From NCBI GenBank assembly GCA_963827655.1, contig CAWHCF010000049.1, forward strand, positions 365,824-429,823: a stretch of 64,000 nucleotides of DNA, given 5' to 3'. Below are positions 10,499-48,300 of the stretch, one piece after another. The notes beneath the pieces were generated by a model, which was not told the DNA's origin, ran no database searches, and saw only the letters and a list, made by a program, of their open reading frames with translations. This DNA comes from an uncultured Acidobacteriota bacterium. Its GTDB lineage: Bacteria > Acidobacteriota > UBA6911. The position numbers were made by a program, and so were the translations under genes. Each line of letters begins with the position of its first letter. Within the stretch, counting starts at the first letter, position 1.

Positions 10499-10681
10499 AA
10501 ACAGAGTATGCGTGACGAGTCAGGATTATCAAAACAGTCCCTACTCACTCGTCACGGTTCACTGTTGGGCGAGGGCGTCCTCATCTCATCCCCTCAGGTG
10601 CCGAGCTGGTCATGGGATGGCAGAGATTATAACACCGGTGCGGAATTTCTCTTCTTCGCAGCCTCACCGAGATTTCTGGTA

Positions 10682-10740
10682 TTTCTTCGTGTCTTAGAGG
10701 TGTTTGTTTCGCAGCGCTAACCACGAAGACATGAAGAAAC
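10682..10740. repeat. REP-like extragenic repeat (inverted pair; core ACCACGAAGACATGAAGAAAC)
   Basis: tttcttcgtgtcttagagg … aaccacgaagacatgaagaaac, immediately 3' of the phosphodiesterase gene. Member of the family also seen at 14955, 28959, 30411, 32802, 39096, 40589, 48046, 53843 and 61156. Confidence 0.6.
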
Positions 10741-12129: not shown

Positions 12130-12345
12130 CTTGTATCACGCGCGCGGTTAAATGGAAAGGACAGGGCTCGTTCGAGTCGCAGTCTGCGACCGGATCCCGC
12201 CCGGTCGACGTGCTCAATCGTCTGGTCCCGCGCCAATCAGGTTCGCGGCAATTGCGCTCCGACCGATTGAAGCGGCTAGAGGCAGTCCCGAATTCGCCGC
12301 ACGTGTGATAGAGTACCTCCCCCACGTAACCAAGGAGGTGATTCG

Positions 12346-12819
12346 ATGACCACCAGGAAGTTGTGTTTGCCTGGGCTCGGGATATGCGTGGCCTTGGGTA
12401 TCATTGGGGTAGGTAGAATCCCGGCCTCGACTCAAACTAAATCCGACCAGCCAAAGGCTCCCGACATCGAGACCATAACCGCCGAAGAGCTGAAAGCGAA
12501 AGTAGTCAAGAAAGAACCCGTCACAATCATAGATGTTCGCGCGAGCGACGCGTACGTCAGCAGCGAAAACAAGATCGAGGGTGCCATCTTTGTAAGGTTC
12601 AGAAGACTCAAAACCCGACTTGCCCAGCCGCCTCTCAAGGATGTTCCTCGCGACCGGGAAATCGTTACTTACTGCGCCTGCCCGAACGAGGAAACAAGCA
12701 TCCGCGCCGCGCAACTTTTCTTGGAAGCAGGCTTCCAGCGCGTACGGGTTTTGAAGGGGGGATGGCAGGCGTGGCTCAAGGCCAATGGCGGGATGGAATC
12801 ACGGCCGAAGGGGCCGTAA
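12346..12819 (+). CDS. Rhodanese-domain sulfurtransferase-like protein with signal peptide
   Basis: 157 aa. Rhodanese fold features: …VTIIDVRASDAYVS…REIVTYCACPNEETSIRAAQ…GGWQAW; active-site Cys lies in the CACP loop. Confidence 0.8.
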   Translation: MTTRKLCLPGLGICVALGIIGVGRIPASTQTKSDQPKAPDIETITAEELKAKVVKKEPVTIIDVRASDAYVSSENKIEGAIFVRFRRLKTRLAQPPLKDVPRDREIVTYCACPNEETSIRAAQLFLEAGFQRVRVLKGGWQAWLKANGGMESRPKGP

Positions 12820-12888
12820 GTACGGTTGAGGGGCATGGGCGCGATCGTGACGAAGACAGAAAAAAAACGCGATCAGAACGTTTTTCTC

Positions 12889-12950
12889 TTGACATCGCCG
12901 TCAAGGATTCAATAAATTGGCCGCCTTCACGTTCCGTTCAATAAATTGTC
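12889..12950 (+). promoter_or_regulatory. Putative promoter-like element with duplicated 12-mer TTCAATAAATTG
   Basis: TTGACA at 12889 followed by two direct copies of ttcaataaattg (~12905 and ~12938) in the AT-richer spacer, at the start of the ~800-bp non-coding region upstream of the DUF1111 gene. Confidence 0.25.
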
Positions 12951-13623
12951 GTTCTCTCTGCAACCGCATTCACCAGAGGGAGCGGTCGCAAGAGAGTTCA
13001 AGCAGCCTCTGGCACACTTTTGAACTATTAGGTTTGGTCGCCAGATGAAGGGGAAGCAGCGGCCGGTACGTGGGTTTGCCCCGCGTCGTTTAACCTGTAG
13101 TTCCTCCGGATTTCCGCGGCACACGAGCACGGTAGCTCCGTCATCGTCGTTGCCGGCCGAAACCACCAACTAAGTCTTCCTCGTAAGCTTCTCATCCGAC
13201 GGTCTTCAAGCGACTCGAGAAGCTTGATCTGCCGGTTTTGTTTTTACGGCATCGCTCCCTCTAGGGTAGAGCGATCACCTGAAATGCGGTTTTTCAACCG
13301 ATTCAGGTCTCTAGCGCTTTTCCAGCACAAAGTAAACAGCTAGGCTCGGCTAGTAACCACAACTGTGGCTAGAAGCCTGGGCGAAACTTCCAGGATCGCC
13401 CACGATACCTGTGTGCCCGGATGTTTCCAGGGCACGCCGGCAGTTGAGTTGCCCGTGCTTCGACGGTAGAGGTGTGCCTCGCGGAGTTGCGAGCGAGACA
13501 CCTGGCAAAGGCCGTGCTGTGCGACAAGCGACTGCCGTCCAGTTTCGCGGTGCTCGAGGTGCGCCCTCTTGGTTTCTACTCCAGGCTGCTAGGGCAGTCT
13601 TCCTAAGAAGGGGGAAACTAACA

Positions 13624-14900
13624 ATGAAGCTTCTGAAAATCTCTGTGTCGTTGGTTTTTATGATCGTGTTGTTCTGGCCAATGATCTGAATTCCGTCACG
13701 GGAGACGATTCCGCCAGAGAAGCTCCCACTACTGACTTGAACGTCCTTACCGACGATATTTTCAACGGGTTCGGCGACAAGGGCCGTCCTGTGGACGAAT
13801 GCTCGAATCCGCCGGTGGCGAACCGCTCGTTCGAAGATAACAAGTTCATATTCGACGAGCGCGAGACTCCGGAGGACGGGCTGGGTCCGGTCTATAACGA
13901 TCTCGGCTGCGGCTCCTGCCATCAGAACCCGGAGAGCGGCGGCATCAGCCAGATCAACGAACTGCGGGCCGGACATGTGTCTAAGCGGCAACTTCGTTGA
14001 TCCTCCAGGTGGTTCGCTGATTCAACTGCGGGCGCTCGCCGCCCCCATACAGGAGCGTCTGGACGACGCCCCGCTCGAAAACATCAGGACCTTTCGAACG
14101 ACTCTCAACGTCATCGGCGACGGCTTCATCGAGGCCATCGCCAACAGTAAAATCGAAGAGATTCAGGATCGACCAGCCGTCAGGCTTCCAGGGCACCATC
14201 ATCAGGGTTCCGGTGGTCGAAGACCGCGGTACGCTTCGCGTGGGCCGCTTCGGCTGGAAGAACCAGCATGCCAGTCTGGTGTCGTTCTCCGGTGATGCAT
14301 ATTTCAACGAAATGGGCATCACCAATCCGTTTGACGGGAATGGCGGAAGGAGAGAGAACACCTCTCTGGGCGACTCGGTCGCAGCATTCGACCGAGTAGC
14401 AGACCCCGAGGACGATGGCGAGGATGTCGAAGCCTTCGCCAATTTCATGAGAGCCACCAGCGCTCCCGGCCGCGGGCCGATCACACTCCGCGGTTCGTCG
14501 CGGTGAGGATCTGTTTGAGGAAGTATCCTGCTCTCAATGTCACACTCCGACGATGACTACCGCAGAACCCGGCACCCTTATCAACGGCGGCCAGTTCAGA
14601 GTGCCGTCAGAGCTGGGCAACAAGATCATCCACCCGTTCAGCGATTTCCTGCTGCACGACATCGGGACCGGTGACGGGATCGTCCAGAACGGCGGTCAGG
14701 CCACCCGGAACATGGTGCGAACGCCGCCGCTTTGGGGTGTGCGCACTCGCCCGATGCTGATGCACGACGGGCAGTCGTTCACCTTCAACGAGGCGATTCA
14801 GCGCCACGCGGGTGTGGGCGGCACAATTTCAAGGAACTCCTTTAACGCCCTGTCCTCCTCGCAAAAGGCGGATCTTATTGCGTTCCTGAAGTCGCTGTGA
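13624..14900 (+). pseudogene. DUF1111 / di-heme cytochrome-c peroxidase-like (thiol oxidoreductase-like) secreted protein, broken by ~4 frameshifts
   Basis: Five consecutive plus-strand pieces. 13624-13689: signal peptide MKLLKISVSLVFMIVLF. 13737-14000: CGSCHQNPESGG heme motif. 13975-14295, then 14213-14506: GRFGWKNQHASL. 14553-14900: DFLLHDIGTGDG…TPPLWG…MHDGQSFTFNEAIQRHAG…ADLIAFLKSL. Frames run 1->0->1->2->0. Confidence 0.7.
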
Positions 14901-14954
14901 AGTCACCGGCCTCAGGGTCAGGTGGAGAATATGGACAGAGGCTCGCCGCTGAGT

Positions 14955-15000
14955 TTTTGGGCGAGCCTCTCGTCTTATCTAAAGCCACCACGAAGACACG
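14955..15000. repeat. REP-like extragenic repeat (CCACCACGAAGACACGAAGACAC)
   Basis: Located 3' of the DUF1111 gene; same family as 10682-10740. Confidence 0.55.
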
Positions 15001-15086
15001 AAGACACAATTCATGAAGTAGCCAGGTCATGTATATGATGTCAGAACTACCAAACAAACTCTTTAATGTAGTCTGTTCTTGCCGGG

Positions 15087-15878
15087 GTGTGCATCCTTTC
15101 GCTCAGTTGCTCCAAGCCGCCGGAGACAAGCAAGGTGGAGCCACCGCCCCGAGCTGAGTCAAGATCAACTCCAGCGCCGGTCACGCCCAGGGGGATGCTC
15201 AACCCTCCGCCGCCCGAACCTGAGGAAGTCAACAGGGCGGTTAGACGCGTGTTCAAGGATGCCGTGATCATTGATACCAGGAGCAGCCCCTATTTCATGG
15301 CAGGCGACTTCAACGGGGACCTTACACAGGACATCGCTGTAGTGGTGAAGCCCACCGTGGCCCGGCTGCCGGAGATCAATGACGAACTGGCCAACTGGAT
15401 ACTGGTGGACCTGAAGAACTCGTATCAGTCCAGGCCTCACGCTGGAATGGTGAGGCTGCCGCCAAGAGTTCGCGTGAACGACGGAGACATTCTGTTGGCA
15501 GTCATTCACGGGTTTGGATTCAATGGCTGGAGGGACGATCAGGCAACCCAGACCTACGTGCTCAAGAATGCCGCCGGTGCCGGGATGAGGACCGAGGCGC
15601 GCCAGCAGGTGGTCAGGCCCGACACCCAGGACAAGCTGCCACGCATCCGGGGTGACGTGATCGCGCAGAGCATGGAGGGGCAGGCCGGCTTCCTCTATTA
15701 CAACGGGGCCAGGTACGCCTGGTACGATCCGCGCACTTACAAGGCGGACGCGCTGGCCGGGCGGCCCACGGCAGGACACACGAGACGATGCGGTAGCGGG
15801 CAAGGCACTGAGGGTCGTGCGGTTTTCGGTGTGCGTCGGGCAAAACATTCAAGCTTTGCGGGCGGCGACGTGTGGTAA
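15087..15878 (+). CDS. Hypothetical protein with an FG-GAP-like motif (possible lipoprotein)
   Basis: 263-aa ORF with GTG start; contains FMAGDFNGDLTQDIAVVVKP. The C-terminal tail is Arg-rich, so the true stop may be earlier. No clear RBS. Confidence 0.4.
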   Translation: MCILSLSCSKPPETSKVEPPPRAESRSTPAPVTPRGMLNPPPPEPEEVNRAVRRVFKDAVIIDTRSSPYFMAGDFNGDLTQDIAVVVKPTVARLPEINDELANWILVDLKNSYQSRPHAGMVRLPPRVRVNDGDILLAVIHGFGFNGWRDDQATQTYVLKNAAGAGMRTEARQQVVRPDTQDKLPRIRGDVIAQSMEGQAGFLYYNGARYAWYDPRTYKADALAGRPTAGHTRRCGSGQGTEGRAVFGVRRAKHSSFAGGDVW

Positions 15879-16100
15879 GCGGTCCGGAGAGTGCGCGACC
15901 GGCGATGTTGATGTCATCAGCCGGCCACGCGCTCGGTTGCTGCTCTATGGGTCGAGGTGGTGCGCCCCGTCAGCGCTCGACCGGCGGGACCCAGCGGAGA
16001 AGTTTCTCTCCAGGGGCTGGGTCTCTGCTGGCTGAGGATTCTCCAGAAGGGTTCCGGTACTCTTCGCACCGGCACACATCCCGAATCAACGGATCGCCGT

Positions 16101-16418
16101 CTCAGGGCAGGGCAGAACCGAACCGTGCGCCCGAACTGAGGGTTCCGGCTACGACATTACCCGCAGCGTCCTGAGCGCCCTGATGCCAGAACTGATTGCC
16201 GATGACGCCCAGATGTTCGAGGATAGTACACTCGGGAGATTCCCTGCCGCCGGTGAGGCGTAGATTACATTGATTGCGCCGGCATTCGTGAATCCCGCGA
16301 CGTCTTCTTCCGCGACGCCGATGGCGAGGTCTGCAGCACCGTCACCGTTAAAGTCTCCGGTGGTGAGGGCCGACCCGAAGCGGTCGTTCTCCTCAGCCTC
16401 ATCTAAGATCGCAGAACT
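16101..16418 (-). pseudogene. FG-GAP/VCBS repeat gene remnant (no start, internal frameshift)
   Basis: Minus-strand translation ILDEAEENDRFGSALTTGDFNGDGAADLAIGVAEEDVAGFTNAGAINVIYAS… Then, in another frame, …GNQFWHQGAQDAAGNVVAGTLSSGARFGSALP*. All three frames carry stops just upstream at ~16419-16425. Confidence 0.45.
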
Positions 16419-16867
16419 TCACACTGGGCGAAATCAGTCATCGATCATGGACCAAACTGCTGCGGCTCGCAGGCTGCTCGCAACTCGCACGGTCGCATCC
16501 GACGATCCGAGCCTGGAGCATGCCGAAGGACATGCTGCCTGATCCAGTCCGGCCGAAGCTGGCCATGGCGCGTCGGATGAAGCTGAAGATACGCCATGGT
16601 CGTGAACGTGTCTGGAAAATCGTAGAGACACGGGATCTTTTGGCGTAGAATCTGCGCGAACAAGGGGCCTGGCCGCTCAGATCACGCGCGGATTGTCCGT
16701 CGTTCGCAGAACGCGACATAATCCTGAACGTGGAAGCAGAGGCAGTCACGGCCTGGGCTTAGATGCCAAAGTGCCGCTTGTTTTTTCTATCCGCTCCCAC
16801 GCGGAGTCTTTGCTGAGGAACGTGGTGCCGGGGAACCCGGAGGACCTGCTGGAAAAGGAGTATGCCC

Positions 16868-19800
16868 ATGAGCGATGACGCCGACGGCGTCATGAACCGC
16901 GGCGCCGGTAGACCGCCGACCGACGAAGCCGAGGTGCGGGCAGCCGTCGAGCGAGCGCATGCGCTCCTCGGCGGCGCGGCCGGCCGTCGACGCCGACGAC
17001 GTCGAGGCGCGCCTTACTCGCATCGGCGAGATGATCCGCCTGGCCAGGCGCCTGGAGCGGCCCGGCGGGCAGGACCAGGTGGCACGAGCGCTCGTCGAAA
17101 ACGCACGGGCAGCCGCGATGGATCTGGCGCAGCGTCTCGACCTCGACCAATTCTCGGAACGCGCGAGGGATGGAACGGCCTCGATCGATGACTTCGCCGG
17201 GCTACGGCGGCGCATCGACCACACCATACGCGTGTCCAGACACCTCGAGTATTTCGGTGAGCGAACTCACGCACGGACACTGTTGGCCAGCGCGCGGGTC
17301 GCTGCCATCAATCTCGCTGTTGACATCCTTCGCGGCGCCGGGAGCACGCCAGGCGAGACCTTGGCCCTGGCTAAGCTCCTCGACCGCCTTGACGAGTTCA
17401 ACTTCGCGTGGAGGATTCTCGACAAGGCCCGCGAGCATCGTGACTTCGGCAGAGAGCCCGGCGAGCGGATCCGGATCGTCCAGAAGCGGGCACTCTACAC
17501 ATACAAGGATGTCACCCAGCCTCTCGGCAAGCGGCTCGACGAGGCGCTGACATTTCTTGAGAACGAGGCAGAGCTGAAGACAACGACAGATCAGGAGACG
17601 CTCGGCCTGGCGGGGGCTATCCACAAGCGGAAATGGGAGCTCACCAAGAACGACCGCCACCTGAACGACTCGTACGCCTATTACCATAAGGGATACGCCC
17701 AGAAGCCGTGGAAGGATCAGGGGTATACGAGCATCAACGCCGCCTACCTCCTGGACTTGCTCGCCCAGGCGCATCGAGCCCTGCCGGAGCAGGCCGAGGC
17801 ACACCGTCATCGGGCAGACGAGATCAGGGCGGAGATCATCTCCGTCGTCCCCGAGATGCCGAAGCAGCCCGGTCAGGAGTGGCTGGAGGACATGTGGTTC
17901 TTCTACAGCACGGTCGGCGAGGCGTACTTCGGCCGTGGCGATTTCGACAAGGCTCACCTGTGGCTGGTGACCAAGCCGGAGCTGCGCGGTGTGCGCCCGC
18001 CGGACTGGGAGTTCGAGACGACGGCGCGACAGCTTGCCGAATTGGTGCGGATCCGAAATCCCGACGTCGACTTCGCGTCGACGCCGGCATGGATGGCCTT
18101 CAGGCAGTTCCTCTCTGAAAGCCCGCTCGGCGGGGGAGGCGACGTGAGCAGCGAGGCTGTGGGGCGGCTCGCCGACGGCAAGGCAGGCCTGGCCCTCTCA
18201 GGCGGCGGTTTTCGCGCTTCTCTCTTTCACATCGGCGTCCTCGCTCGACTCGCCGAGCTGGACGTGCTCCGCCGCGTCGAGGTCCTGTCGTGCGTCTCAG
18301 GAGGTTCCATCGTCGGCGCCCACTACTACCTGGAGGTCAGAAAGCTCCTCAGTGAGAAGCCCGACCATCAGATTGAAAAGAAGGACTACATCGAGATTGT
18401 CCAGCGTCTCGAGAAGGAGTTCCTCACCGGTGTGCAGACCAACATCCGCATGAGCGTGGTCACCGAGGCTAAGGCAGTCCGGCGGATGCTCCACCGGAGC
18501 TATTCGCGGACGGTGCGCCTGGGAGAGCTCTACGAGGAGCAGCTCTACTCGCGCGTCGCCCCCATCGAGGGCGAGAAGGTGGATGCGGACAACGGGGTGC
18601 GCGAGCGTTACATGCATGAGCTGGCGATCCACCCCAAGCTCGCGAAGGGTGGTCAATGGACCGACTTTGCGCCAAGGAATCACAACTGGCGGCGCGAGGC
18701 CAAAGCCCCGATCCTTATTCTAAACGCCGCCGCCCTGAATACCGGTCACAACTGGCAGTTCACGGCCAGCTACATGGGCGAGGCGCCCGCCACCATTCAC
18801 CGTGAGATCGACAGCGTCTCGCGGCTGCGTCGCAAGTACTACACAGATGCCCCTCACAGCGCGGCCGCTCCACAGAAGGTGCGGCTCGGCGCCGCGGTGG
18901 CCGCGTCATCCTGTGTGCCCGGTTTGTTCGAGCCCTTGGTGTTCGCGGACATGTACGAGACGCGAGGCAGCGGGCAGCCCATCGACGTCACGCTCGTCGA
19001 CGGCGGCGTCTGCGACAATCAGGGCGTGGCCGGTCTCATCGAACAGGATTGCACCGTCCTGCTCGTCAGTGACGGGAGCGGCCAGATAGACGCGCTGGAC
19101 GCGCCAAGCGCCAGGGCGCTGATGGTGGCCTTGCGCACGAACGGGATCTTGCAGTCGCGTGTCCGCGGCACCCAGTACCGCGAGCTGGATGCGCGGCGCG
19201 GCGCCCTGATGCTGAACGGGTTGATGTTCGTCCATCTTAAGAAGGACCTCGACAACCAACCGGTAGACTGGAAGGACTGCCCTCCGGAGTTGAGGCTCCG
19301 CGCTCCCGATGATCGTGAGGTGCTGACCAAGTACCGAATCTCGAAGGACGTACAGCGGCGGCTGGCCGCCATCCGCACCGATCTCGATTCGTTTTCCGAT
19401 CAGGAGGCCTACGCCCTGATGCTGAGCGGCTATCGGATGACCGAGTATGAGTACGCGAACAGATTCGCTCCCGTGGCCGCGGCCCCCGAGCCGCAGGCCT
19501 GGCGCTTTCGTGCGATCGAGCATGCGATGACGCGGCCGGGTGAAGCTCAGGACTACCTCAACACGATCCTCGACGCCGGGAGCAGCCTCGCCTTCAAGGT
19601 CTGGAAGCTCGATGCGCGGCTCCGGAGCCGCGCGCAGCGCCTGAAGCAGCTGGTAGTCGCGGCTGGCGCGGTCGCCGGGCTCGTCACCTTGCTCGTGCTG
19701 GCCGCTCTGCTGCAGGCCGTGTGGTCACTGTTGGGGGGTGGCGCCTCGGTGTTGCCGGCCGCCGCGCTGACGGGGCTCGGTGCGATCGTCACCGTGGTGG

Positions 19801-20030
19801 CGGTGGTGGTCGTCCTCGGGTCGCTGTTCGCCCTGCTGTTCTATGCGGTGAGGCTGCGAGGGAAGGGCGACGCCGTGGCTCATTTCGCAGTCGGCGCGTT
19901 GCTGCTGTTCGTCGGCGGTCCGGTGGCGCGACACCACATGAGGAAGTACGAGCCAGCGTACCTGGAGCGGGGAAGCATCCGGAAGCTGCCCGGTCCGTCC
20001 AGGGCCGCGTTTAGAACTGCCGCGCGCTGA
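16868..20030 (+). CDS. Patatin-like phospholipase with N-terminal DUF4071-type TPR-like domain and C-terminal 4-helix membrane anchor (putative effector); probable frameshift near 16975 between an SD-equipped ATG at 16868 and the annotated 16959 start
   Basis: Patatin motifs: GGGFRAS (oxyanion loop), CVSGGSIVGAHY (GxSxG nucleophile), DGGVCDNQGV (catalytic Asp). aa ~150-400 align with the TPR region of the 441-aa gene opposite (GAIHKRKWE vs GRIYKDQWE; SYAYYHKGYAQKPWKDQGYTSINAAYL vs AIETYLQGFEADWRDAYPGINAVTL). The C-terminus has four hydrophobic helices (LVVAAGAVAGLVTLLVLAALL…). An aaggag SD sits 7 nt before the ATG at 16868, in frame 2; the annotated ATG 16959 is in frame 0 and has no SD. Confidence 0.8.
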
Positions 20031-20217
20031 TCTCGATTCCCCGGCGCGGATGCCGTCCGGTCGCGGGTCCCTTCGAGCGTCTTCGGGTATAGCAGGAGTC
20101 AACAATGAGTCACCCGGTCAAGCACAACATCCCGTACGCGGAGAGCGACAAGGGAGCGCTACGCCCGATTGAGTTAGCGTCTCGAAGCGCACCTTGAATT
20201 GCTTGGCTGCTCTTAGA

Positions 20218-20240
20218 ACTTCGTGAGGCCTCACGGGGCG
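20218..20240. terminator. Perfect palindrome CGTGAGGCCTCACG (with G run) between convergent genes; candidate bidirectional terminator
   Basis: actt-cgtgaggcctcacg-gggcg lies midway between the patatin stop (20030) and the minus-strand gene stop (20278). Confidence 0.4.
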
Positions 20241-20277
20241 CTTAAATTCGGAGTCGAGTTCAGAAACATATAAAGAA

Positions 20278-21603
20278 TTATTTCGAGTGCTCTAGTAGCT
20301 TCCTCTCAATTTCATCCGCCCAACGAACCTCGTCGTTTCGCTGTTTGCGCGCTTCTCGGATAAGACCCAAGTTTCTCGCCGTGGTTGCTGGTTCCCAGGA
20401 TTCCCGTATTAAGGTCAGCGCAACAGTTAATGAGCTAGTCGCTTGTTGTTGATCTTTGGCTAAGACCGCCAACTCAACCAGAGTGGCATAATCCCAGTAA
20501 TCAGGCTTACCCGTCGCGATACGACGCTCAACCGCGTACGCAACAACCGGGACCAGCCTTTGCTGGCGCGTATCCGGCGGTTCCCTCAGCTCCATCAATG
20601 TAACGGCATTGATTCCAGGGTAAGCGTCTCGCCAGTCAGCCTCGAATCCTTGGAGATAGGTTTCTATGGCCTTTTCCAGCAGGCTCTTTGCGACTGATAT
20701 GTCCTTTCTTTTTGATGCTTCCTCCCATTGATCTTTGTAGATACGCCCAAGAATGCTGCAACTTTCGCTGCTGGGCCCTCGCTTTTCAATCAACTCCTTT
20801 AAAGTCTCTTCGGCTTGGCGTCTCTCGCCGAGGCGATTGAGCGCGAGGGCGAGCTGTTCTTGCACCATGACGGTTGACGCCAAGGGTCGTGACATTTTGT
20901 TTACTAGATCGGTCATTTCCTTCCAGGCCTGAACAGCGCGATAGGAAAGAAGGAGATCAATAACCACTCCAGTGTCACAATGTTCAATGTTGCCAAGCTC
21001 GGCTTCTATTGCGCGCAGCGCTTCAATGTTTTTACCTTTCCGCGCCGCCGCAAGTTGAGCTTTCCTCTCTGGCGAGTATGCTACTACTTCTCGGAAGACG
21101 TCAGTTTTCGTGTGGGCAATACCAGGGTAATTTTCCACCAGCTCATAGATCGAACTGCCAGGAGCCGACTCTCGAACTTCTTTCAATTGAAAAGCCAGCG
21201 CAGCCTTAGCACCCTGAACGTCTTTCAGAGATCCGTTGGAAGTTAGCGCGTAGGTTAAGGTCCGGAGCGTACCGTGGTCAAGGGTCACGCCGCTCGCCTC
21301 GGAAAGGATGACCACCGTAGAGTTCGGACGCACTGCATCCCGCGCACCCAGCTCATAGATCGCGTTGGCATTGGCTGTCGTCAGGTCCACGACCGCGTAC
21401 TCGCAAAGAATAGCTTGCTCAACCATAGGCTTGTGAATCATTCCCCCGATCACCGGCTCATCGGGCCGAATCGCCTCGAGCCCCGCTTCTTTTATTGCAG
21501 GCGCCACCAGGTCTCGATAAATCCCTTCAAAATCGATCGTGAACCCCTTTCCGTCGGCTTTCTGGCCATAGGGCATAAAAACAAAGCAAAGTGGTCGACT
21601 CAT
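20278..21603 (-). CDS. NDT-like (nucleoside 2-deoxyribosyltransferase/TIR-like Rossmann) domain + DUF4071-type TPR protein (ASK1 N-terminal-like)
   Basis: 441-aa intact ORF. N-terminus MSRPLCFVFMPYGQK…AILCEYAVVDLTTANANAIYELGARDAVRP is an NDT-like signature with Glu in an E-[LA]-G context. C-terminal ~250 aa are TPR-like and homologous to the N-terminus of the patatin protein. ~50% GC versus ~63% in flanking genes. Confidence 0.8.
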   Translation of the reverse strand: MSRPLCFVFMPYGQKADGKGFTIDFEGIYRDLVAPAIKEAGLEAIRPDEPVIGGMIHKPMVEQAILCEYAVVDLTTANANAIYELGARDAVRPNSTVVILSEASGVTLDHGTLRTLTYALTSNGSLKDVQGAKAALAFQLKEVRESAPGSSIYELVENYPGIAHTKTDVFREVVAYSPERKAQLAAARKGKNIEALRAIEAELGNIEHCDTGVVIDLLLSYRAVQAWKEMTDLVNKMSRPLASTVMVQEQLALALNRLGERRQAEETLKELIEKRGPSSESCSILGRIYKDQWEEASKRKDISVAKSLLEKAIETYLQGFEADWRDAYPGINAVTLMELREPPDTRQQRLVPVVAYAVERRIATGKPDYWDYATLVELAVLAKDQQQATSSLTVALTLIRESWEPATTARNLGLIREARKQRNDEVRWADEIERKLLEHSK

Positions 21604-21693
21604 AAAATCAGGACCCGTCTCCCTGCACCTCGGCTGAAAAACACCGACGGCTATGAAAACCCGTGCTCTCTCGAGCCACCTGACAATTCGTCT

Positions 21694-22963
21694 TTAAAGC
21701 TCCCAATTCAACACGCGCCGACGGTAAGGATAAGCGATGCGATGCAGAATACCTAACAACTCAACGTCATCGGAGTAAAAGAAGACCTGCTGATCGCGGA
21801 ACATGAACGGAGGGCGACGGCGTGGCGATCGTGCAACCAAATAGAGTTTTGCATCAGCTCCCCGAGCGATACCAGCTTCTATGCAAGTGTTCAAGTTGTC
21901 TTCCGAGATGTCTGAGGCCACCATCGATGCCTTCGCGATTCGCTCAATAATGGTCTGCTGGATCTGGCCCTCGCGAATATCATCGCCCACAACACACGGA
22001 GTTCCCGTGACGCGCTGAAGAATCTGTTTGATGACCTGATTCCGCACTCGGTTTTGATCGTCGAAATTGGTGGAGAGAAAAGTATAGTGGGGCCGTGGAG
22101 GTCGTTTCCATTCATCAGAGATCCACTCAATGCCTTTGCGCAAGCTATTCGCAACTGTGCTGTTGAAACCTCCGTCTGAAGGCGCGACCCGTATTAGACG
22201 TTGCATCGAGCCCTCGGTTACCTGAACACTCGGTTCCGCGATAACAAGGCAAGGCAGGCCGAGCGCTCCAGCAATCTCAATTTCCTGTAGCATGTACTTT
22301 GAAGTCTCACCGTTACCACGATCTGGAAGGATGGCGACCAGTCCCCCACAGCTCGAAATGATGCTCTGAATCCGAGTTGCCTCGACTCCTGGCCAATCCT
22401 TCGAGTCACCAACAAGCCTGAAATCAGCCTGGGCGAGAACTTCTTTGCATATACCGTCGGCCAGGGACGACTCACTTTCTCTCCACGTTCGACTGACGTA
22501 GACGTCACGGGTTTTTTCGAAATCCAGATCCACTTCGTCGTAATACAGATCCGCGAGAAACTGACCATAGGTGACCACTTCTCTCTTATCTTGGACAAGG
22601 TCAACCCACTTGGTCGTTTGCAGGAACCCGGGCACTTGGCATTCGTCAATGCGCACTGGAATAACGCGAAAATCTTTGAGTTGCGTCCGCTGGCCAATCG
22701 CCGCTTCATACTCCTCTCTGACCCAACCCGAATTGATAGAAGCGCTCGATAATACGATGATCATGGAACGGCATTGAGTGACGGATTCCGCGAGTCGTGT
22801 CGCGATGGTAGCGCCGGCGGGTAGATGGCGGGCGTCGTACCAGATCGGAATTCCTGATACCTCACTCAGCCACTTATGCAGACCGTCAACAAATGACTTG
22901 TCGGCATGCGCGTGGCTAAGAAAGGCACAGAACTTGCGCTTGTTTAATGGCAGTTCCCGCCAA
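21694..22963 (-). CDS. TIR-domain protein with two C-terminal NDT-like domains; N-terminal 66 codons of the TIR domain lie upstream of the annotated ATG (22764) with no in-frame canonical start (probable frameshift near 22950, or CTG start)
   Basis: Manual translation upstream of M22764 in the same frame gives a canonical TIR N-half: …LPLNKRKFCAFLSHAHADKSFVDGLHKWLSEVSGIPIWYDARHLPAGATIATRLAESVTQCRSMIIVLSSASINSGWVREEYEAA. A perfect SD aaggagg (22970-22976) and a TTG (22963-22961) sit in a different frame that stops after 15 codons. Downstream domains: DVYVSRTW…CLVIAEP and HYTFLSTNF…ASMVASDISEDNLNTCIEAGIARGADAKLYLV; the second matches the partner gene's NDT-like motif. Confidence 0.75.
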
Positions 22964-23095
22964 AATGTCCCTCCTTGAACTCAAGTATGTCCAGAAAGTC
23001 TACTGTCGATGCCGCAAATTCGAGCTCGAAGATGCCGAATATAGCAGTACTGTTCTTGATGTGCGATCAGTATTTCCGTGGGCTAATTTCCTTGG

Positions 23096-23155
23096 AGTGC
23101 GGTAGCAAGCTTGCTACTGCCTTAGGTCGGCGAAGCTTGCTTCGCCGACGCCAAA
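23096..23155. repeat. GCAAGCTTGC-type palindromic repeat pair (tagcaagcttgcta … cggcgaagcttgcttcgccg)
   Basis: Two adjacent perfect hairpins sharing the HindIII-like core; related copies at 24846-24910 and 58424-58470. Confidence 0.5.
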
Positions 23156-23247
23156 CCTTACAGGCGGTGCGAGCGCATGAACCGGGAGCTTTTTCAACGC
23201 GCTCTGATGACCCGTTCCACAGACCCAATCTTTCACAGCTTCTCAGG

Positions 23248-23324
23248 GCGGGGATCTTGAAGACTCCCCTGACACGAGGTCCGAAGGACCGGCGCGCCGG
23301 CTGTGTCGCAGCTTTGGCGCTCTT
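23248..23324. repeat. ~75-bp dispersed hairpin-rich repeat (copy 1)
   Basis: cccctgacacgaggtccgaaggaccggcgcgccggctgtgtcgcagctttggcgctc is >90% identical to 48240-48298. Contains the ggtccgaaggacc hairpin. Confidence 0.6.
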
Positions 23325-23482
23325 CTTGACCAGCGCGGACGGCCGGCGAACTTGATTCGGCATCCACCTCTTTTGACCAACCCGAGAGTGTTTGACATCG
23401 ACCGGCGAAATAGCTAACCTCAATACGCTTTCACAGGCCGAATTCCAATTGACGACTCATTGGCACTTGCCGCGGAGGTCTT

Positions 23483-24832
23483 ATGAACCGTCGCCAGTTT
23501 CTCGAAGGAACCGCTGCCGCGAGCGTGGCAGCGACTCTATCAAGGCCGGGTGCCTCAGTCGCGAGCCCGAACGATATGGTAAACGTGGCTATCGTCGGAA
23601 TTCGAGGCGAAAGCCAGGGGCAGCCGACGTGGACCCGGCTCGGCCGAGGGCAGGATCACTACGCCGGCCTATCGCATGTGAAGAACGCCCGGATTACGCA
23701 CGTGGTCGACATCGACGAGCGCCACTTTGCGACGGTGCTTCCCAAGCTCCGGTCACGGTGGGGCGGGGATCCGAAGACCGAGACCGACATTCGGCGCATC
23801 CTGGATAATCGCGATGTCGACGCCATCACGATCGCGGTTCCCGATCACTGGCACGCGTTGATGACGGTCTGGGCCTGCCAGGCGGGCAAGGACGTTTATG
23901 TCGAGAAGCCGGTGTGCCACAACCTCTTCGAAGGCCGCAAGATGGTCGAAGCGGCGCGAAAGTACAAGCGCGTTGTGCAGGCGGGCACGCAGCGCCGCAG
24001 CAACCAGCTTACGAAAGAAGCGGTAAAGTTCCTCCAGTCCGGAGGGCTGGGGAAGCTGTACGCCGCACGCTGCTCCGTGCTGCGGCCGCGCGACCCGATA
24101 GGACACAAGGTCGACGGTCCCGTTCCAGAGGGAGTCCACTACGACCTTTGGCTGGGGCCCGCGCCCCTACGCCCCTTCAACGAGTTGCGCTTCCACTACA
24201 CCTGGCACTGGTTTTGGGACTACGGTGACGCGGACCTGGGGAACAACGGTGTGCACGTGCTCGACATCCTGCGCTGGGCGATCGGCAAGCGGGAGCATCC
24301 GCGCCGTATCCACTGCACGGGCGGGCTGTTCGACAAGGGCGCACCCACCGACCAGGAGACCCCGAACACCCAGTACGTCACGTTCGAGTATGCCGACGGC
24401 ACGAACCTGCGCTGCGACGTGCAGGGCTGGTACGGCGGGAGCGACGGAGGCGGGAGTTTCATCTATGGCACCGAGGGTTGGATGGATCTCGGCGGCAGGG
24501 AAGGCCCCCGGATCTTCTTGGGACGCAAGAATGAGCCCGGGCCCGACCTGCGCAAGCTGGCCGGGGGCGGTCAGGGCGATGACGAGGGTCCCGACCCGCA
24601 CTTCCAGAACTTCATCGAATGCGTCCGGTCGCGCAAGTGGCAGGAACTGGCCGCCGACATCGAAGAGGGGTACATGTCAACCGCGCTGTGTCACCTGGGA
24701 AACATCTCCTACCGGCTCAAACGCCCGCTGGTCTTCGACGGGCGCAGCGAGCGCTTCCCGGACGACGCGGAGGCCAACCGGTTCCTCACTCGCGAATATC
24801 GCCGGCCGTTCGTCGTCCCCGAGAAGGTGTGA
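23483..24832 (+). CDS. Gfo/Idh/MocA-family NAD(P)-dependent oxidoreductase with Tat signal
   Basis: Tat motif NRRQFLEGTAAASVAA. N-terminal Rossmann VNVAIVGIRG…; …DVDAITIAVPDHWHA…VYVEKP. 449 aa. Confidence 0.9.
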   Translation: MNRRQFLEGTAAASVAATLSRPGASVASPNDMVNVAIVGIRGESQGQPTWTRLGRGQDHYAGLSHVKNARITHVVDIDERHFATVLPKLRSRWGGDPKTETDIRRILDNRDVDAITIAVPDHWHALMTVWACQAGKDVYVEKPVCHNLFEGRKMVEAARKYKRVVQAGTQRRSNQLTKEAVKFLQSGGLGKLYAARCSVLRPRDPIGHKVDGPVPEGVHYDLWLGPAPLRPFNELRFHYTWHWFWDYGDADLGNNGVHVLDILRWAIGKREHPRRIHCTGGLFDKGAPTDQETPNTQYVTFEYADGTNLRCDVQGWYGGSDGGGSFIYGTEGWMDLGGREGPRIFLGRKNEPGPDLRKLAGGGQGDDEGPDPHFQNFIECVRSRKWQELAADIEEGYMSTALCHLGNISYRLKRPLVFDGRSERFPDDAEANRFLTREYRRPFVVPEKV

Positions 24833-24845
24833 CGGCTCGCTTTTG

Positions 24846-24910
24846 GAGTGCGCAAGCTTGCTAAGCTTGCTTGCGCCTTGTGTTGCGGCAGCTTGCTGCT
24901 GCAGCACGGA
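24846..24910. repeat. GCAAGCTTGC-type palindromic repeat (gtgcgcaagcttgctaagcttgcttgcgccttgtgttgcggcagcttgctgctgc)
   Basis: Shares gcttgcgccttgtg..gcgg.a.cttgctgc.gc with 58424-58470. Lies immediately after the oxidoreductase stop and overlaps the annotated first ~20 codons of the next ORF. Confidence 0.5.
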
Positions 24911-25747
24911 ATCGCTAGACTCCAGGCGCTTTCGCCATTCCAGATACGTTATCGTAATTGCGAAAGCATCCCTGCGCCGAAGAAAAAAGCCTTGAGCCGT
25001 CAGCCGTCCGAGCCCGATGTCCTCCGCTGCGATTTCTGTGGTAAATCGCAGTCTGACGTGAGGAAATTGATTGCCGGGCCGCACGTCTACATCTGCGACG
25101 AGTGCGTGGAGATATGCGTTGAAATCCTGGGCGACGAAGGCGTGAACGTCACGATCGTCCCAGAACCAACAGTCAAGAATGAGAGGATCCCGGACCATAC
25201 CATACTCTGGCGCAGATTGGACCAGGCGGGCCATGAGTCAGCGCGGCTGTCCTATCGAGATTTCTCCTGGCATCTGAACGGAACGTCGGTGTTTGCGCAT
25301 CAACAGCAGCCGTGCCGGCTCGACTACCTGGTGATCTGCAACCGGAAATGGCAGACCGTGTTCGGGCGGGTTAACGGCTGGGTCGGGGACCGGCCCATCA
25401 ATATCGAAATCTCGGCGGACACTTCACGACGCTGGCAGCTCAACGGGAAAGAGAATCCCGAAGTTGAGGGGTGCATCGACCTGGACCTTAACTTCAGCCC
25501 GTCGACCAACCTGCTTCCGATTCGACGGCTGGACCTGGCGGTCGGAAACGAAGCCAACGTACGGGCAGCCTGGCTTCGCTTTCCCGCTTTCACGTTTGAA
25601 CCACTCGACCAGCTCTACCGCCGTACGGATCGCGCGACCTACCATTACGAAAGTGGGGGTGGCGCCTTCGTCGCTGAACTCAGGGTGAGTGAGGCAGGGT
25701 TCGTCACGCATTACTCAGACTTTTTTGAGATCGTCGCGCCGTCATAG
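24848..25747 (+). CDS. ClpX-type C4 zinc-finger fused to a putative glycolipid-binding-like (PF06475-like) domain; true start probably downstream of 24910
   Basis: [36 protein letters not shown] is a ClpX-N-type zinc finger. C-terminal ~190 aa (…[11 protein letters not shown]…[19 protein letters not shown]…) resemble the glycolipid-binding family; family assignment is from memory. Confidence 0.55.
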
Positions 25748-25810
25748 CCAGTCCACCGGCTCTCGGACGCGGCACGAGATCGTCCTGTTCGTGCCTCAAC
25801 GCCACACAAA

Positions 25811-26092
25811 ATGCCCGTACGAGCAAAACAGATCAGAGTTCACGGCAGAGTCCAGGGCGTGGGGTTTCGTTATTTTGTGCAACGGGCCGGCAACCGCCTC
25901 GGTCTCACAGGGAATGTGCGCAATTGCCCGGACGACACCGTGGAGATCGTGGTGGCAGGTGACCCAGAATTGATAGAAGAATTCTTGAAGGAGGTCACCA
26001 AGGGGCCGCCACTCTCCAGGGTCGAGCGTCTTGAGATCAACGACGTAGCTCCGGTCGAGAAGTTCCGAAGTTTTCAAATTGAGGGATGGTGA
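25811..26092 (+). CDS. acyP: Acylphosphatase
   Basis: 93 aa; signature VHGRVQGVGFRYFV and GNVRNCPDDTVEIVV. Confidence 0.9.
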   Translation: MPVRAKQIRVHGRVQGVGFRYFVQRAGNRLGLTGNVRNCPDDTVEIVVAGDPELIEEFLKEVTKGPPLSRVERLEINDVAPVEKFRSFQIEGW

Positions 26093-26610
26093 TCATGCGA
26101 GATCTGAAAGCGGCGATCCGCCAGATTCCTGATTGGCCCCGCAAGGGAATTCTCTTTTACGACGTGACTACTCTCCTCAAGGACGGGCAATGCTTTCGGC
26201 AGGTCGTTGATGCTCTGGTAGCCCCATTTCAGGATAAACCGGTGGAGGTGGTCGTCGGAATTGAGGCCCGCGGATTCATCTTCGCGCCGACCGTGGCCTA
26301 CGGCCTCAATGCGGGTTTTGTTCCTGTGCGGAAGCCGGGGAAACTGCCGGCGCCGACTCACCGAGCCGTGTACCAGCTCGAATATGGGACCGATAGCCTG
26401 GAGATCCATCAGGATGCGATTCAGCCGGGACAAAGAGTCTTGATTGTGGATGACCTCATCGCCACCGGAGGTACGGCGAAGGCGGTCGCCGACCTGGTTC
26501 AGGTGATGGGAGGAATTGTCTTGGGATTCGCTTTCCTGGTCGAGCTTGAATTTCTGAATGGGCGCGACAGGCTGGCGGATTACCAGATCACGAGCGTTCT
26601 GAAATACTGA
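26086..26610 (+). CDS. apt: Adenine phosphoribosyltransferase
   Basis: 174 aa; PRPP-binding motif VLIVDDLIATGGTAKA; …IPDWPRKGILFYD…. Confidence 0.9.
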   Translation: MVIMRDLKAAIRQIPDWPRKGILFYDVTTLLKDGQCFRQVVDALVAPFQDKPVEVVVGIEARGFIFAPTVAYGLNAGFVPVRKPGKLPAPTHRAVYQLEYGTDSLEIHQDAIQPGQRVLIVDDLIATGGTAKAVADLVQVMGGIVLGFAFLVELEFLNGRDRLADYQITSVLKY

Positions 26611-26638
26611 AGGTTGAAGACCCGAAGCGGGAGCCTCC

Positions 26639-28063
26639 ATGCCGGAGTTTCATGCCGAACCTTATGTCTACCTGGCTGGACTGACTCACAAAGCGGCGCT
26701 CATTGCGTGGGGAGGTTTCTACTTCCGAGTCCGAGATCAAAAATCGGATGGAAGTTGGAAACTCGTAGACGACCGTGACCTGGAACATGTTCACCCGCCC
26801 CGGCGCGAAAGCATCGGGGCGAGGTCGGAGCCGTATGGGCCGGCTAAGGTCGAAGTTTTTGATGCCTCCGGAACGCTGGTTTCATCGGCTGAAACCGCCA
26901 CGACCAACCACGTCTGGGTTCCAGGACTCGCACCCGACACGGAATACACCTATCGCGTCATTGTGAATGGCGAAGTTTGGGGAGACGGCGAGCGCCGCGA
27001 CTGGGTCACTGGTTCGGACGGTCAAGGTCTGGTCCGCACCGGCCGGAGGTACGAGAATCGTTTCCGAACTCATCCCCATCCGGAGGAATCCGCCTCGCTG
27101 ACGTTCGCAGTGCTGGGCGACTTCGGAACCGGCGTTCGCAAATCGTCCAAGCCGGAGAAGAGACAACGCGAGGTGGCACGGGCGCTCGACCGGGCCATCG
27201 ATGAAAGAGGAGTGCGCCTGATCATCACAACCGGTGACAACATCTATGCCGGCAAAACCTTTCTCGGGTTGCCCGTGGGGGCCACGGGCGACGAAGACGA
27301 TGACTGGTTTTTCACTTTCTATCAGCCCTACCGATACATCATCAATCGCATTCCGGTTTACCCTTCCGTGGGCAACCACGACAGCAACGAATCGGAAGCG
27401 AGCGACGACCGCCAGCAACTGATCGACAATTTCTATCTTGCGGAGCGTTTTTCGGGCGAAGAAGCAGCCGGTCGAGCGTCCATAAACCCCGGCCTCTTTT
27501 ACCGCTTCCACTATGGCGCCGAAATCGAGTTCATCTGCATAGACACGTCGCGGCAGTCGAGCCTGTTCTCAAAACGGTTTTTCGAGCATCCGAATCACAT
27601 CGCGTTCGTGGAAGCATCATTTCCCGCATCGGGCGCCGCGGCCAGCGACTCGCCGGCCTGGCGCATCCCTTTTTCACACCACCCTCCATATTGTGCGGGC
27701 CCTCGACATTTCAATTCGCGCTCGATGATCGAGAAGCTCGTGCCGTTGTTTGAACGCGCGGGAGTCCGGGCTGCCTTCAGCGGACACGAGCACAATTTTC
27801 AGTATTCGCGCGCGGGCAAGATTCACTACTTCGTCACGGGCGCCGGGGGCAAGGTCCGGCTCGAGACGCCTTCAGAGTTCAGCAAGGCGCAAACGTCCGC
27901 ATGGGCGAGCGCCGGCCATTTCTTACTCGTGGAGGTGGACCGACGGCAAATGATCGTGAGTCCGATCGGAGAAATTGGTTCAGACGACACTCTGTCAAAC
28001 CTGCGCATCGTGAGCCCGGACAATCAGGCCATAACGACGCCAATCATCATTCCCCGGGCATGA
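26639..28063 (+). CDS. Purple acid phosphatase-like metallophosphoesterase (calcineurin-like) with N-terminal FN3-like domain
   Basis: Motifs GDFG, GDNIY, GNHD, GHEHNFQY (metallophosphatase signature). 474 aa. Confidence 0.85.
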   Translation: MPEFHAEPYVYLAGLTHKAALIAWGGFYFRVRDQKSDGSWKLVDDRDLEHVHPPRRESIGARSEPYGPAKVEVFDASGTLVSSAETATTNHVWVPGLAPDTEYTYRVIVNGEVWGDGERRDWVTGSDGQGLVRTGRRYENRFRTHPHPEESASLTFAVLGDFGTGVRKSSKPEKRQREVARALDRAIDERGVRLIITTGDNIYAGKTFLGLPVGATGDEDDDWFFTFYQPYRYIINRIPVYPSVGNHDSNESEASDDRQQLIDNFYLAERFSGEEAAGRASINPGLFYRFHYGAEIEFICIDTSRQSSLFSKRFFEHPNHIAFVEASFPASGAAASDSPAWRIPFSHHPPYCAGPRHFNSRSMIEKLVPLFERAGVRAAFSGHEHNFQYSRAGKIHYFVTGAGGKVRLETPSEFSKAQTSAWASAGHFLLVEVDRRQMIVSPIGEIGSDDTLSNLRIVSPDNQAITTPIIIPRA

Positions 28064-28124
28064 CGCCGAGCGCACGGGCTCGAGCGTTTTCGAGGGCAGG
28101 GGGGATGATTTCGAGACAGCTCAT

Positions 28125-28958
28125 ATGAGGCCGACTACCTTCACACTCGCCCTGATCGTGATCTTCGGTACGGCCTGCAGCCGCGCGCCTTCCGATAATC
28201 CTGAGGGAGAGCGGCGAGCCAACCCTGGCGTGCATGACGCCCTGAAAGCGAAAAACCCGGGCTACAGCGGCCAGGGGCAATTCGAGCCACGAGCCGGCGG
28301 GTTTGCAGCCACGTTGCGTGAGAGCGGGATCAGCGATCTCAGTCCCTTGAAAGAAATGCCCCTGAGAGAACTCGATCTCCAGAATAATCCCGTCACTGAC
28401 TTGAGCCCGCTGCAGGGGTTGCCGCTGGAAGCGCTTTACCTCGAGGGAACTCAGGTCAGCGATCTTCGACCGCTCAAAGGCATGTCGCTGCGCGTTCTCT
28501 ATCTCAGTGGAACCAAGGTGAGCGACCTTTCGCCCCTCAGAGGTGTGCCTCTGCGCGAACTCAATCTGCTGGGCACGCAGGTCACGGATCTCGCGCCTCT
28601 CTACGGCGCGCCGCTGGAGATCGCGTGGCTCAACGAAACACCGGTGCGCGATCTGACCCCGCTCGAAGCTTCGCCACTCGTCAGCCTGACAATCCACCGG
28701 ACACGCGTCGAGAATCTCAGCCCGATTCGCAAGTTGAAAACCCTCCAGCGGCTCCATCTGGCTGAGACCCCGGTCAGTGATCTGACGCCGCTTGAAGGCA
28801 TGGAACTGGTTCGATTGATTTTTTCGCCCGGGCGCATTCGGAAGGGGATCGGGGTAGCGAGGAAGATGAGTTCGATCCGCGAAATCGGCACCGACCTTGA
28901 GGGACGACTCTCACCCGCTGTATTCTGGGAGATGTACGATAAGGGGGAATTCAAGTAA
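28125..28958 (+). CDS. Leucine-rich-repeat (LRR) lipoprotein
   Basis: Signal/lipobox-like LALIVIFGTAC followed by ~9 tandem 22-aa LRRs (LxxLxLxxTxVSDLxPL). Confidence 0.8.
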   Translation: MRPTTFTLALIVIFGTACSRAPSDNPEGERRANPGVHDALKAKNPGYSGQGQFEPRAGGFAATLRESGISDLSPLKEMPLRELDLQNNPVTDLSPLQGLPLEALYLEGTQVSDLRPLKGMSLRVLYLSGTKVSDLSPLRGVPLRELNLLGTQVTDLAPLYGAPLEIAWLNETPVRDLTPLEASPLVSLTIHRTRVENLSPIRKLKTLQRLHLAETPVSDLTPLEGMELVRLIFSPGRIRKGIGVARKMSSIREIGTDLEGRLSPAVFWEMYDKGEFK

Positions 28959-30410: not shown

Positions 30411-30461
30411 GCGAAACAAATACCACGACGAAACAAAGACACGAAGAAACGCTAAGCGACC
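30411..30461. repeat. REP-like extragenic repeat (gcgaaacaaataccacgacgaaacaaagacacgaagaaacgctaagcgacc)
   Basis: Near-identical to 61156-61205 (gcgaaacaaataccaccaggatccaaagacacgctagcgc). Confidence 0.6.
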
Positions 30462-48025: not shown

Positions 48026-48045
48026 AAATAGAAGCGCAACGCGCC

Positions 48046-48130
48046 TGGTGCTTCTTCGTGTCTTTCAGTCTTAACGGTATTTGTCAGACAGCTCCAACCA
48101 CGAAGACACGAAGGAACACTAAGTCGGTTG
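48046..48130. repeat. REP-like extragenic inverted repeat pair (ggtgcttcttcgtgtctttcag … aaccacgaagacacgaaggaacactaag)
   Basis: Two arms in opposite orientation separated by ~30 nt. Same family as 10682-10740. Confidence 0.6.
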
Positions 48131-48226
48131 GTTCATAATTACGCCGACGTATTGGGCAGAGTCGGAGTCGGCTGTGTTGTTGCCTAGGGCCGAAGGCCCG
48201 TCAGTGAGTAGCCCCGCCCGTAAGGG

Positions 48227-48300
48227 CGGGGTTTTCAAAGGGTCCCTGACACGAGGTCCGAAGGACCGGCACTCCGGCTGTGTCGCACCTTCGGCGCTCC
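48227..48300. repeat. ~75-bp dispersed hairpin-rich repeat (copy 2), preceded by ccccgcccgtaagggcgggg and gggccgaaggccc hairpins
   Basis: ccctgacacgaggtccgaaggaccggcactccggctgtgtcgcaccttcggcgctcc matches 23265-23322. Confidence 0.6.

Follow-up and report, generated by a model that had tools for sequence, protein, structure and literature searches.

The window analysed here is the whole 64,000-nt stretch (positions 365,824 to 429,823) of contig CAWHCF010000049.1, assembly GCA_963827655.1, from an uncultured Acidobacteriota bacterium of the UBA6911 lineage. At ~20.1-23.4 kb it carries two co-oriented genes separated by a 90-nt gap, one for a TIR-domain protein and the other for a Tpr protein, that is, a protein with a nucleoside deoxyribosyltransferase (NDT)/MilB-like N-domain followed by a TPR-S scaffold. 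The pair is poor in GC, lies tail-to-tail with a gene for a TPR-S-patatin, and is separated by a stretch with short repeats from a gene of the Gfo/Idh/MocA family (23483-24832). The features are collected in Table 1. The questions addressed are what kind of system the TIR-Tpr pair represents, how it came to its present site and whether the patatin belongs with it.

Tpr is matched by two Pfam families, MAP3K_TRAF_bd (PF13281, 171.1 bits against a cutoff of 24.1) and TPR-S (PF20308, 96.5 bits against 27.6). Its best sequence matches in the PDB are entries of human ASK1 (MAP3K5; 5ULM and 8QGY, E 3e-7), and its AlphaFold2 model, with a predicted local distance difference test score (pLDDT) of 83, returns ASK1 8QGY as the top Foldseek match (E 6e-10, 463 columns). 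The two proteins have the same fold and a detectable sequence kinship, with the N-domain and the TPR part both aligned; the bacterial protein differs from ASK1 in having no kinase, PH or SAM domain and in keeping putative glycosidase residues. These residues belong to the motif N78-A79-N80...E84 in the alpha/beta domain formed by the first 150 residues: N80 is invariant and E84 at least 90% conserved among 30 homologues that are ~60% identical. When a profile of the N-domain was searched against the PDB, the top match was Rcl/DNPH1, with the glutamate of the YELG motif in register with the catalytic glutamate, at an E-value of only 0.7. The family is ~60% identical across Acidobacteriota, Desulfobacterota, Nitrospirota and Ignavibacteria, and the Firmicute-type Tpr proteins are only ~25% identical to the window protein. 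No record identical to the exact window Tpr sequence was found.

In the TIR protein, the TIR domain (residues ~10-140) is followed by two alpha/beta domains, the first of them TIR-like (~150-260) and the other NDT-like (~290-415). The TIR_2 match in Pfam scores 90 bits, above the gathering score. In the 422-aa numbering the TIR domain carries the motif W80-V-R-E-E84, in which W80 is invariant and E84 at least 90% conserved over 36 homologues; E84 occupies the W-x-x-x-E position, which we take to be the equivalent of the catalytic E642 of SARM1. The C-terminal 277 residues give only sub-threshold Pfam matches, to TIR_2 and Nuc_deoxyrib_tr, and a PDB profile search with this part of the protein returned no match. 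The C-terminal module is rare (366 clusters among 1.84 billion representative proteins) and nearly always lies at about residues 147-425 of proteins of ~420-440 aa, a place which in the homologues examined is behind the TIR domain. A common origin of the C-terminal domains and the Tpr N-domain was considered and set aside, hhalign being weak at best (domain 3: P 0.004, probability 8%).

The third protein, encoded on the opposite strand, combines an N-terminal TPR-S domain (PF20308, 57.8 bits) with a patatin domain (PF01734, 51.8 bits, cutoff 27.7). Its patatin motifs are GGGFR at 415, CVSGG at 445 (Ser447) and DGG at 681 (Asp681), and they are well kept in 80 homologues: GGGFR, the nucleophile serine and the aspartate of DGG in 80/80, CVSGG in 78/80 and DGGV in 75/80. 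At least two hydrophobic helices are found at the C-terminus, with hydrophobic stretches at ~898-918 and ~933-960. The homologues, which share 41-62% identity, are scattered patchily over many phyla.

Table 1. Features of the TIR-Tpr locus (positions in the window). GC3, GC content at third codon positions; REP, repetitive extragenic palindromic; MITE, miniature inverted-repeat transposable element. L001 and L085 are two other sequences of the same species.
Feature	Position	Strand	Description
TPR-S-patatin gene, 1023 aa	16959-20030	+	Convergent with Tpr; GC 0.654, GC3 0.824
Spacer between the convergent patatin and Tpr genes	20104-20262		Strain-variable
Tpr gene, 441 aa	20278-21603	-	NDT/MilB-like N-domain and C-terminal MAP3K_TRAF_bd/TPR-S scaffold; GC 0.527, GC3 0.548
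TIR gene, 422 aa (in L085)	21694-22963	-	TTG start at 22963; GC 0.52, GC3 0.56
REP-like hairpin pair	23088-23154		Upstream of the TIR gene; perfect or near-perfect, AAGCTTGC core common to both
REP/MITE-like segment with dispersed repeat 23267-23322	23180-23332		Strain-variable; absent from L001, present in L085

The locus is a TIR-Tpr cassette of a kind already predicted by comparative genomics and preliminarily tested. Burroughs and Aravind are said to have predicted, in a 2020 article in J Bacteriol, systems centred on TPR-S in which a TIR gene lies beside a core Tpr gene and which sense NAD+-derived signals. The window pair resembles the BcTir/BcTpr system of Bacillus cereus in being a two-gene operon of a TIR gene and a gene for a protein with a MilB/NDT-like domain, in the window a putative N-glycosidase, followed by a TPR scaffold. 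BcTir/BcTpr gives E. coli protection from T phages, which depends on both genes (Liu et al., bioRxiv 10.1101/2023.05.26.542521). According to the same preprint it is BcTpr, not BcTir, that makes an isomer of cyclic ADP-ribose (cADPR) and depletes NAD+, and production of the isomer, NAD+ depletion and defence all require N82 and E86 of BcTpr; the partners found among 78 Tpr operons include TIR in 28/78 and patatin in 4/78, so that patatin-Tpr assemblies are among the listed variants (bioRxiv 10.1101/2023.05.26.542521). The BcTpr motif N80-P81-N82...E86 corresponds to N78-A79-N80...E84 of the window Tpr. The two systems differ in their TIR proteins, BcTir being a small, single-domain protein with lysine in place of the catalytic glutamate and the window protein having two extra domains and the glutamate kept, and in the TPR-S-patatin gene that adjoins the window pair.

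Two other families of defence systems invite comparison. In Thoeris (TIR protein ThsB with ThsA), as is proposed for the window locus, an NAD+-derived signal made by a TIR protein activates an effector, leading to NAD+ depletion or abortive infection. The window locus differs in that it has no gene for ThsA (SIR2/Macro/SLOG) and in that its predicted sensor is TPR-S rather than SLOG or Macro. An assignment to Thoeris or to another PADLOC system was rejected, since the only PADLOC matches were weak ThsB-type ones to the TIR protein (E 1e-6 or worse), with Tpr and the patatin unmatched; PADLOC has no model for Tpr or for TPR-S-patatin. A search of NCBIfam gave nothing above the cutoffs. The CapV-type patatin effectors of cyclic-oligonucleotide-based antiphage signalling systems (CBASS), with GGxR, a nucleophile serine and DGG, are membrane-degrading phospholipases of nucleotide-signalling defence. 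The window patatin differs from them in its N-terminal TPR-S sensor and its C-terminal hydrophobic-helix anchor, and has neither a CD-NTase gene nearby nor a PADLOC match.

The original prediction had singled out 20278-22992 as a low-GC island among neighbours all at ~62-65% GC, and had read it as a two-gene module acquired horizontally next to a resident or co-acquired patatin gene. The island itself is confirmed. Its GC content is 52.6% against a window mean of 59.3%, ~2.9 standard deviations (SD) below the mean of 2.7-kb windows (mean 0.594, SD 0.023), and the only stretches that are comparably low are windows overlapping the island and the first 2 kb (1-2000). The GC step at ~20100 is sharp, from 0.68 to 0.51, recovery takes place between ~23100 and ~23500, and the non-coding flanks at 20100-20277 and 22964-23100 are low in GC as well. 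Measured against the 16 other window genes of at least 400 aa (mean GC3 0.725, SD 0.052), the GC3 of Tpr and TIR has z = -3.4 and z = -3.2, and no other part of the window exceeds the block in raw tetranucleotide distance (z = +3.3 to +3.4). The description of the neighbours fits the patatin and Gfo/Idh/MocA genes (the latter with GC 0.647 and GC3 0.818) and not the typical genes of the window, which are at 57-62% GC; because both immediate neighbours stand at the GC-rich end, the contrast looks exaggerated. Genes of high GC3 do occur among the residents: besides Gfo/Idh/MocA (0.82) there are the gene at 61329-63062 (0.83) and the 2-oxoglutarate (2OG) oxygenase gene of L085 (0.89). A second outlier, lower still than the TIR-Tpr block, is the subtilase (Peptidase_S8) gene at the window edge (116-1747, plus strand; GC 0.50, GC3 0.454, z -5.2).

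Comparison with Tpr genes elsewhere shows how unusual the contrast with the patatin gene is. In 16 other loci where the two genes are neighbours, the GC3 of Tpr minus that of patatin is -0.018 ± 0.053, against -0.276 in the window. Across these loci the GC3 of Tpr spans 0.45-0.78 and tracks that of the neighbouring patatin, which argues that the Tpr family has no intrinsic low-GC bias.

The TIR-Tpr pair also behaves as a unit that is found in varied surroundings. The order TIR then Tpr is kept in the two other sequences of the species, L001 and L085, and in L169, the closest outside cassette (TIR 77%, Tpr 64% identity). It is probable in L168 (TIR 80%), where only a truncated, unassigned gene follows TIR. 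The cassettes of L168 and L169, each at 53.5-55.8% GC, lie in gene contexts unrelated to that of the window, and the context of the cassette in Telluribacter (L172) is different again. Of the 58 plasmid records that carry a Tpr homologue, 30 are predicted to be conjugative, and on Rhizobium plasmids the Tpr homologue lies amid several TIR genes. Carriage of the cassette by phages was considered and discarded: two phage records contain N-domain fragments only.

Some of these homologous loci are of interest in their own right. On the Rhizobium plasmid NZ_CP104156.1 (L170, 1465-9127) the Tpr homologue is flanked by three TIR genes and also by genes for a QueC-like 7-cyano-7-deazaguanine synthase, an HhH-GPD glycosylase, a carbohydrate kinase and a DUF4231 protein, a cluster that is a more elaborate, nucleotide-modifying version of the TIR-Tpr system. 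The closest Tpr outside the species (68%) is found on two near-duplicate contigs with the same cluster (L002 and L003, ENA ERZ25039463), which within 10 kb carry Tpr fragments, a polyprenyl synthase, two other TIR genes, a TPR-S-patatin and another TIR_2 gene.

Within the species, identity to L085 is 99.0-99.3% at 20263-28092, 98.6% over the patatin gene and 95.8% at 11418-16410; the segment 16410-16823, left of the patatin gene, is only 76% identical to L085 or absent. Collinearity with L085 ends at ~28.2 kb, where L085 instead has ParD antitoxin, PepSY_TM and 2OG-oxygenase genes. The region 11418-28208 is mosaic and recombining. The ratio of nonsynonymous to synonymous substitution rates (dN/dS) between strains is 0.15-0.45 on few substitutions, which indicates purifying selection and is consistent with functional genes.

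We consider it likely that the region at ~20.1-23.4 kb is a horizontally acquired TIR-Tpr cassette of the TPR-S-centred family of NAD+-signal defence systems, tail-to-tail with the TPR-S-patatin gene. The block would have come from a donor of low GC content (~52-56%) into a chromosome of ~59% GC, in which it would still be unameliorated. As regards the acquisition of the two-gene module, which the original prediction had proposed, the foreign composition, the cohesion of the pair, the varied contexts and the plasmid carriage of homologues support it indirectly and make it probable, and the usual hallmarks of mobility were not found. A number of observations weigh against our reading. Among composition measures, the GC-normalised TETRA correlation (z = -1.45, rank 18/205) and the synonymous-codon likelihood (z = -1.2 and -0.65 for the two genes) are unremarkable and not significant alone; the island signal is essentially one of base composition. 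The block is present in 3/3 same-species sequences (the window, L001 and L085) at 98-99% identity, and no empty site was found in scans of genome and metagenome contigs. The genome-contig scan with the patatin gave matches of at most 62% identity, from other phyla, and the metagenome-contig scan with the Gfo neighbour gave matches of at most 63%; among long contigs, the one with the best Gfo orthologue (71%) shares no synteny with the window. A 2.5-kb contig of 90% identity from a sister species (L087, JGI 3300082023; Gfo 94% at the amino-acid level) loses homology at 23376 and ends 161 nt further on. No tRNA genes were found in the 64 kb, no integrase, transposase or other mobility domains in Pfam scans of the window, and no direct repeats flanking the block. 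With respect to function, experimental support for Tir-Tpr systems comes from one preprint on B. cereus, and the role of the window TIR may differ from that in B. cereus because BcTir is catalytically dead and regulatory. In addition, a strong Tpr match is missing from the flanks of 64/80 patatin homologues, the patatin and Tpr genes are convergent and 13 GC points apart, and the TIR gene of the window has one extra base at 22952/22953, which shifts the frame after codon 4.

With this extra base, an intact TIR reading frame is absent from the window, and the next in-frame ATG is that of M64 at 22764. The start of the gene reads GGA ACTG CCA in the window, GGA ACG CCA in L085 and GGA ATG CCA in L001. 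The insertion is likely a consensus or assembly artefact, because the extra base sits on a C/T difference between strains and because several window genes look truncated. Partial Pfam matches of this sort are those to a protein kinase at 9721-10332 (minus strand; match to position 153 of 263), to DHOR at 14553-14897 (plus strand; positions 392-499 of 499) and to a TonB-type barrel at 33524-34999 (minus strand; positions 149-393 of 838), and this suggests frameshifts, pseudogenes or assembly indel errors in the open reading frames concerned. If the insertion is real, the gene is inactivated in the window strain or needs a non-canonical start.

Two other accounts of the composition have to be set against transfer of the TIR-Tpr pair. 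One is that low GC reflects constraint or selection specific to these genes (toxic defence genes, for instance, being kept at low expression) and acting on long-standing residents. It would accommodate the presence of the TIR-Tpr genes in every sampled strain, an oligonucleotide signature that beyond GC is not clearly foreign, and the fact that the L168 and L169 cassettes also lie slightly below their own flanks in GC3; we nevertheless regard it as very unlikely, given that Tpr GC3 follows the local value across 16 genomes instead of staying low, and that the non-coding flanks of the block share its low GC. The other account places the GC step inside the island rather than at its edge, with patatin, Tpr and TIR arriving together as a defence island that was already mosaic. 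The trio does recur in other phyla, as does an analogous layout of Tpr, TIR and a TPR-S-protease, and the patatin homologues are themselves patchily distributed at 41-62% identity. Moreover, conservation between strains is poor at 16410-16823, and further left identity is 95.8%, down from 99%; the variable region could therefore extend leftwards past the patatin gene. Against this stand the GC3 of the patatin gene, which fits the resident class of high GC3 (Gfo, 61329-63062 and the 2OG oxygenase of L085), and the 16 other patatin-Tpr pairs, which are equal in GC3, so that a gap of 0.28 within one transferred unit would be exceptional. A joint arrival is in our view rather unlikely.

The third alternative concerns the patatin and not the transfer: it could be an independent, self-contained TPR-S-patatin system whose adjacency reflects the ordinary clustering of defence genes, with TIR-Tpr working alone as in B. 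cereus. BcTir/BcTpr does defend without a patatin (bioRxiv 10.1101/2023.05.26.542521), L169 has TIR-Tpr with no TPR-S effector in view, and the patatin may act alone, seeing how many of its homologues have no strong Tpr match; the convergent orientation and unlike composition of the patatin and Tpr genes point to separate transcription units with separate histories. What tells against independence is neighbourhood. Among the 80 patatin loci, a strong Tpr match over the full length is found in 16, often immediately next to the patatin gene, and TIR open reading frames are found in 18, compared with 0/80 for each in a control set of 80 loci (755 kb; Fisher p ~1e-5). The patatin gene adjoins Tpr in the same convergent layout in L085 and L006, and all three genes occur together in L012, L042, L046, L051, L072 and L002. 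The same rare sensor domain, TPR-S, is present in both the Tpr and the patatin proteins. In Telluribacter (L172), finally, the genes for Tpr and for a 426-aa TIR protein of the same family lie convergent to one for a TPR-S-trypsin, which is the same layout with the effector swapped and argues for coupling. We give an independent patatin a sizeable chance, somewhat short of even.

The patatin and TIR-Tpr most likely fall in one class of system, with the patatin as a probable effector arm. With its own TPR-S domain and homologues enriched for Tpr and TIR neighbours it is not a mere bystander, and the adjacency noted in the original prediction is not the whole of it. The case for its functional coupling to TIR-Tpr is about evenly balanced. 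The mismatch in composition between the two is evidence of different histories in this genome. In the locus of another TIR homologue, L173, the next gene encodes a protein that is not Tpr. The cluster in Telluribacter sp. (Bacteroidota; JAFEUV020000022.1, 221-12469) is dense, and besides Tpr, the 426-aa TIR and TPR-S-Trypsin_2 it contains TIR-endonuclease, TIR-WD40, SLOG-TIR and NB-ARC genes.

A scheme of action can be sketched along the lines of the B. cereus preprint and of TIR systems in general. When a phage infects the cell, the TIR protein, which retains its glutamate, and/or the Tpr N-domain, which retains N80 and E84, would cleave NAD+ to yield a cADPR-like nucleotide. TPR-S scaffolds would bind this signal, whereupon Tpr would deplete NAD+, and the putatively membrane-anchored TPR-S-patatin might be switched on to hydrolyse phospholipids, so that the infection would be aborted. 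We further propose, tentatively and with less than even confidence, that the locus is a modular assembly, in which an incoming low-GC TIR-Tpr signal generator came to lie beside a resident, host-like TPR-S-patatin and the shared TPR-S sensor would let the cassette drive the effector. More generally, Tpr, the ~420-aa three-domain TIR protein and a convergent TPR-S-effector (patatin or trypsin protease) may, on this proposal, form a distinct three-component system, with TPR-S as the receptor for a nucleotide made by the TIR or NDT-like domain.

The locus does not overturn current views. It adds an environmental, acidobacterial example to the TPR-S/ASK1-like branch of TIR-based immunity, a branch that was predicted by comparative genomics and has been put to the test in only one preprint; the regulatory region of ASK1 descends from such bacterial TPR-S domains. 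The TIR protein that retains its glutamate, the rare and fixed three-domain TIR architecture and the recurrent effectors fused to TPR-S (patatin, trypsin protease) are possible guides to how TPR-S reads NAD+-derived signals. The GC mismatch between the signal module and the effector provides a small, clean case for asking whether defence systems combine parts of different origin.

The edges of the block hold repeats and spacers that differ between strains. Between the patatin and Tpr genes, L001 lacks 20104-20236 and L085 lacks ~20145-20262. Upstream of the TIR gene, 23099-23149 contains two hairpins of 9-10 bp with a fold energy of -20.6 kcal/mol (z -4.8), and an 87% copy of the hairpin element is found in L087, where its place is another one, immediately 3' of the Gfo gene. 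A 93% copy of the dispersed repeat at 23267-23322 lies at 48244-48299, and the 16-nt core of the repeat is also found at 58302 with two mismatches; the 16-mer core is counted 3 times against 0.19 expected. Both the palindromes (reported at 23096-23155) and the dispersed repeat (23248-23324) of the original prediction are thus real. Their use as a hint of acquisition did not survive: as insertion scars they were rejected, being REP- or MITE-like, strain-variable, and recurrent elsewhere in the window and at another site in a related species. These spacers indicate unstable intergenic DNA and not island borders. Rfam families and a promoter or terminator consensus were looked for as well, and none was found.

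Elsewhere in the window, short GC-rich stem-loops with GAAG-, TTCG- or GTAAG-type loops form an intergenic cluster at 48030-48340 and occur also at 10670-10740, 30411-30456 and 58302-58317. With them goes a dispersed hairpin element, CTTCGTGTCTT...AAGACACGAAG, copies of which are present at several window sites and in L087. Directly downstream of the Gfo/Idh/MocA gene, at 24848-25747 on the plus strand, lies a gene whose product, unusually, joins a ClpX-type C4 zinc finger to a putative glycolipid-binding domain (PF06475).

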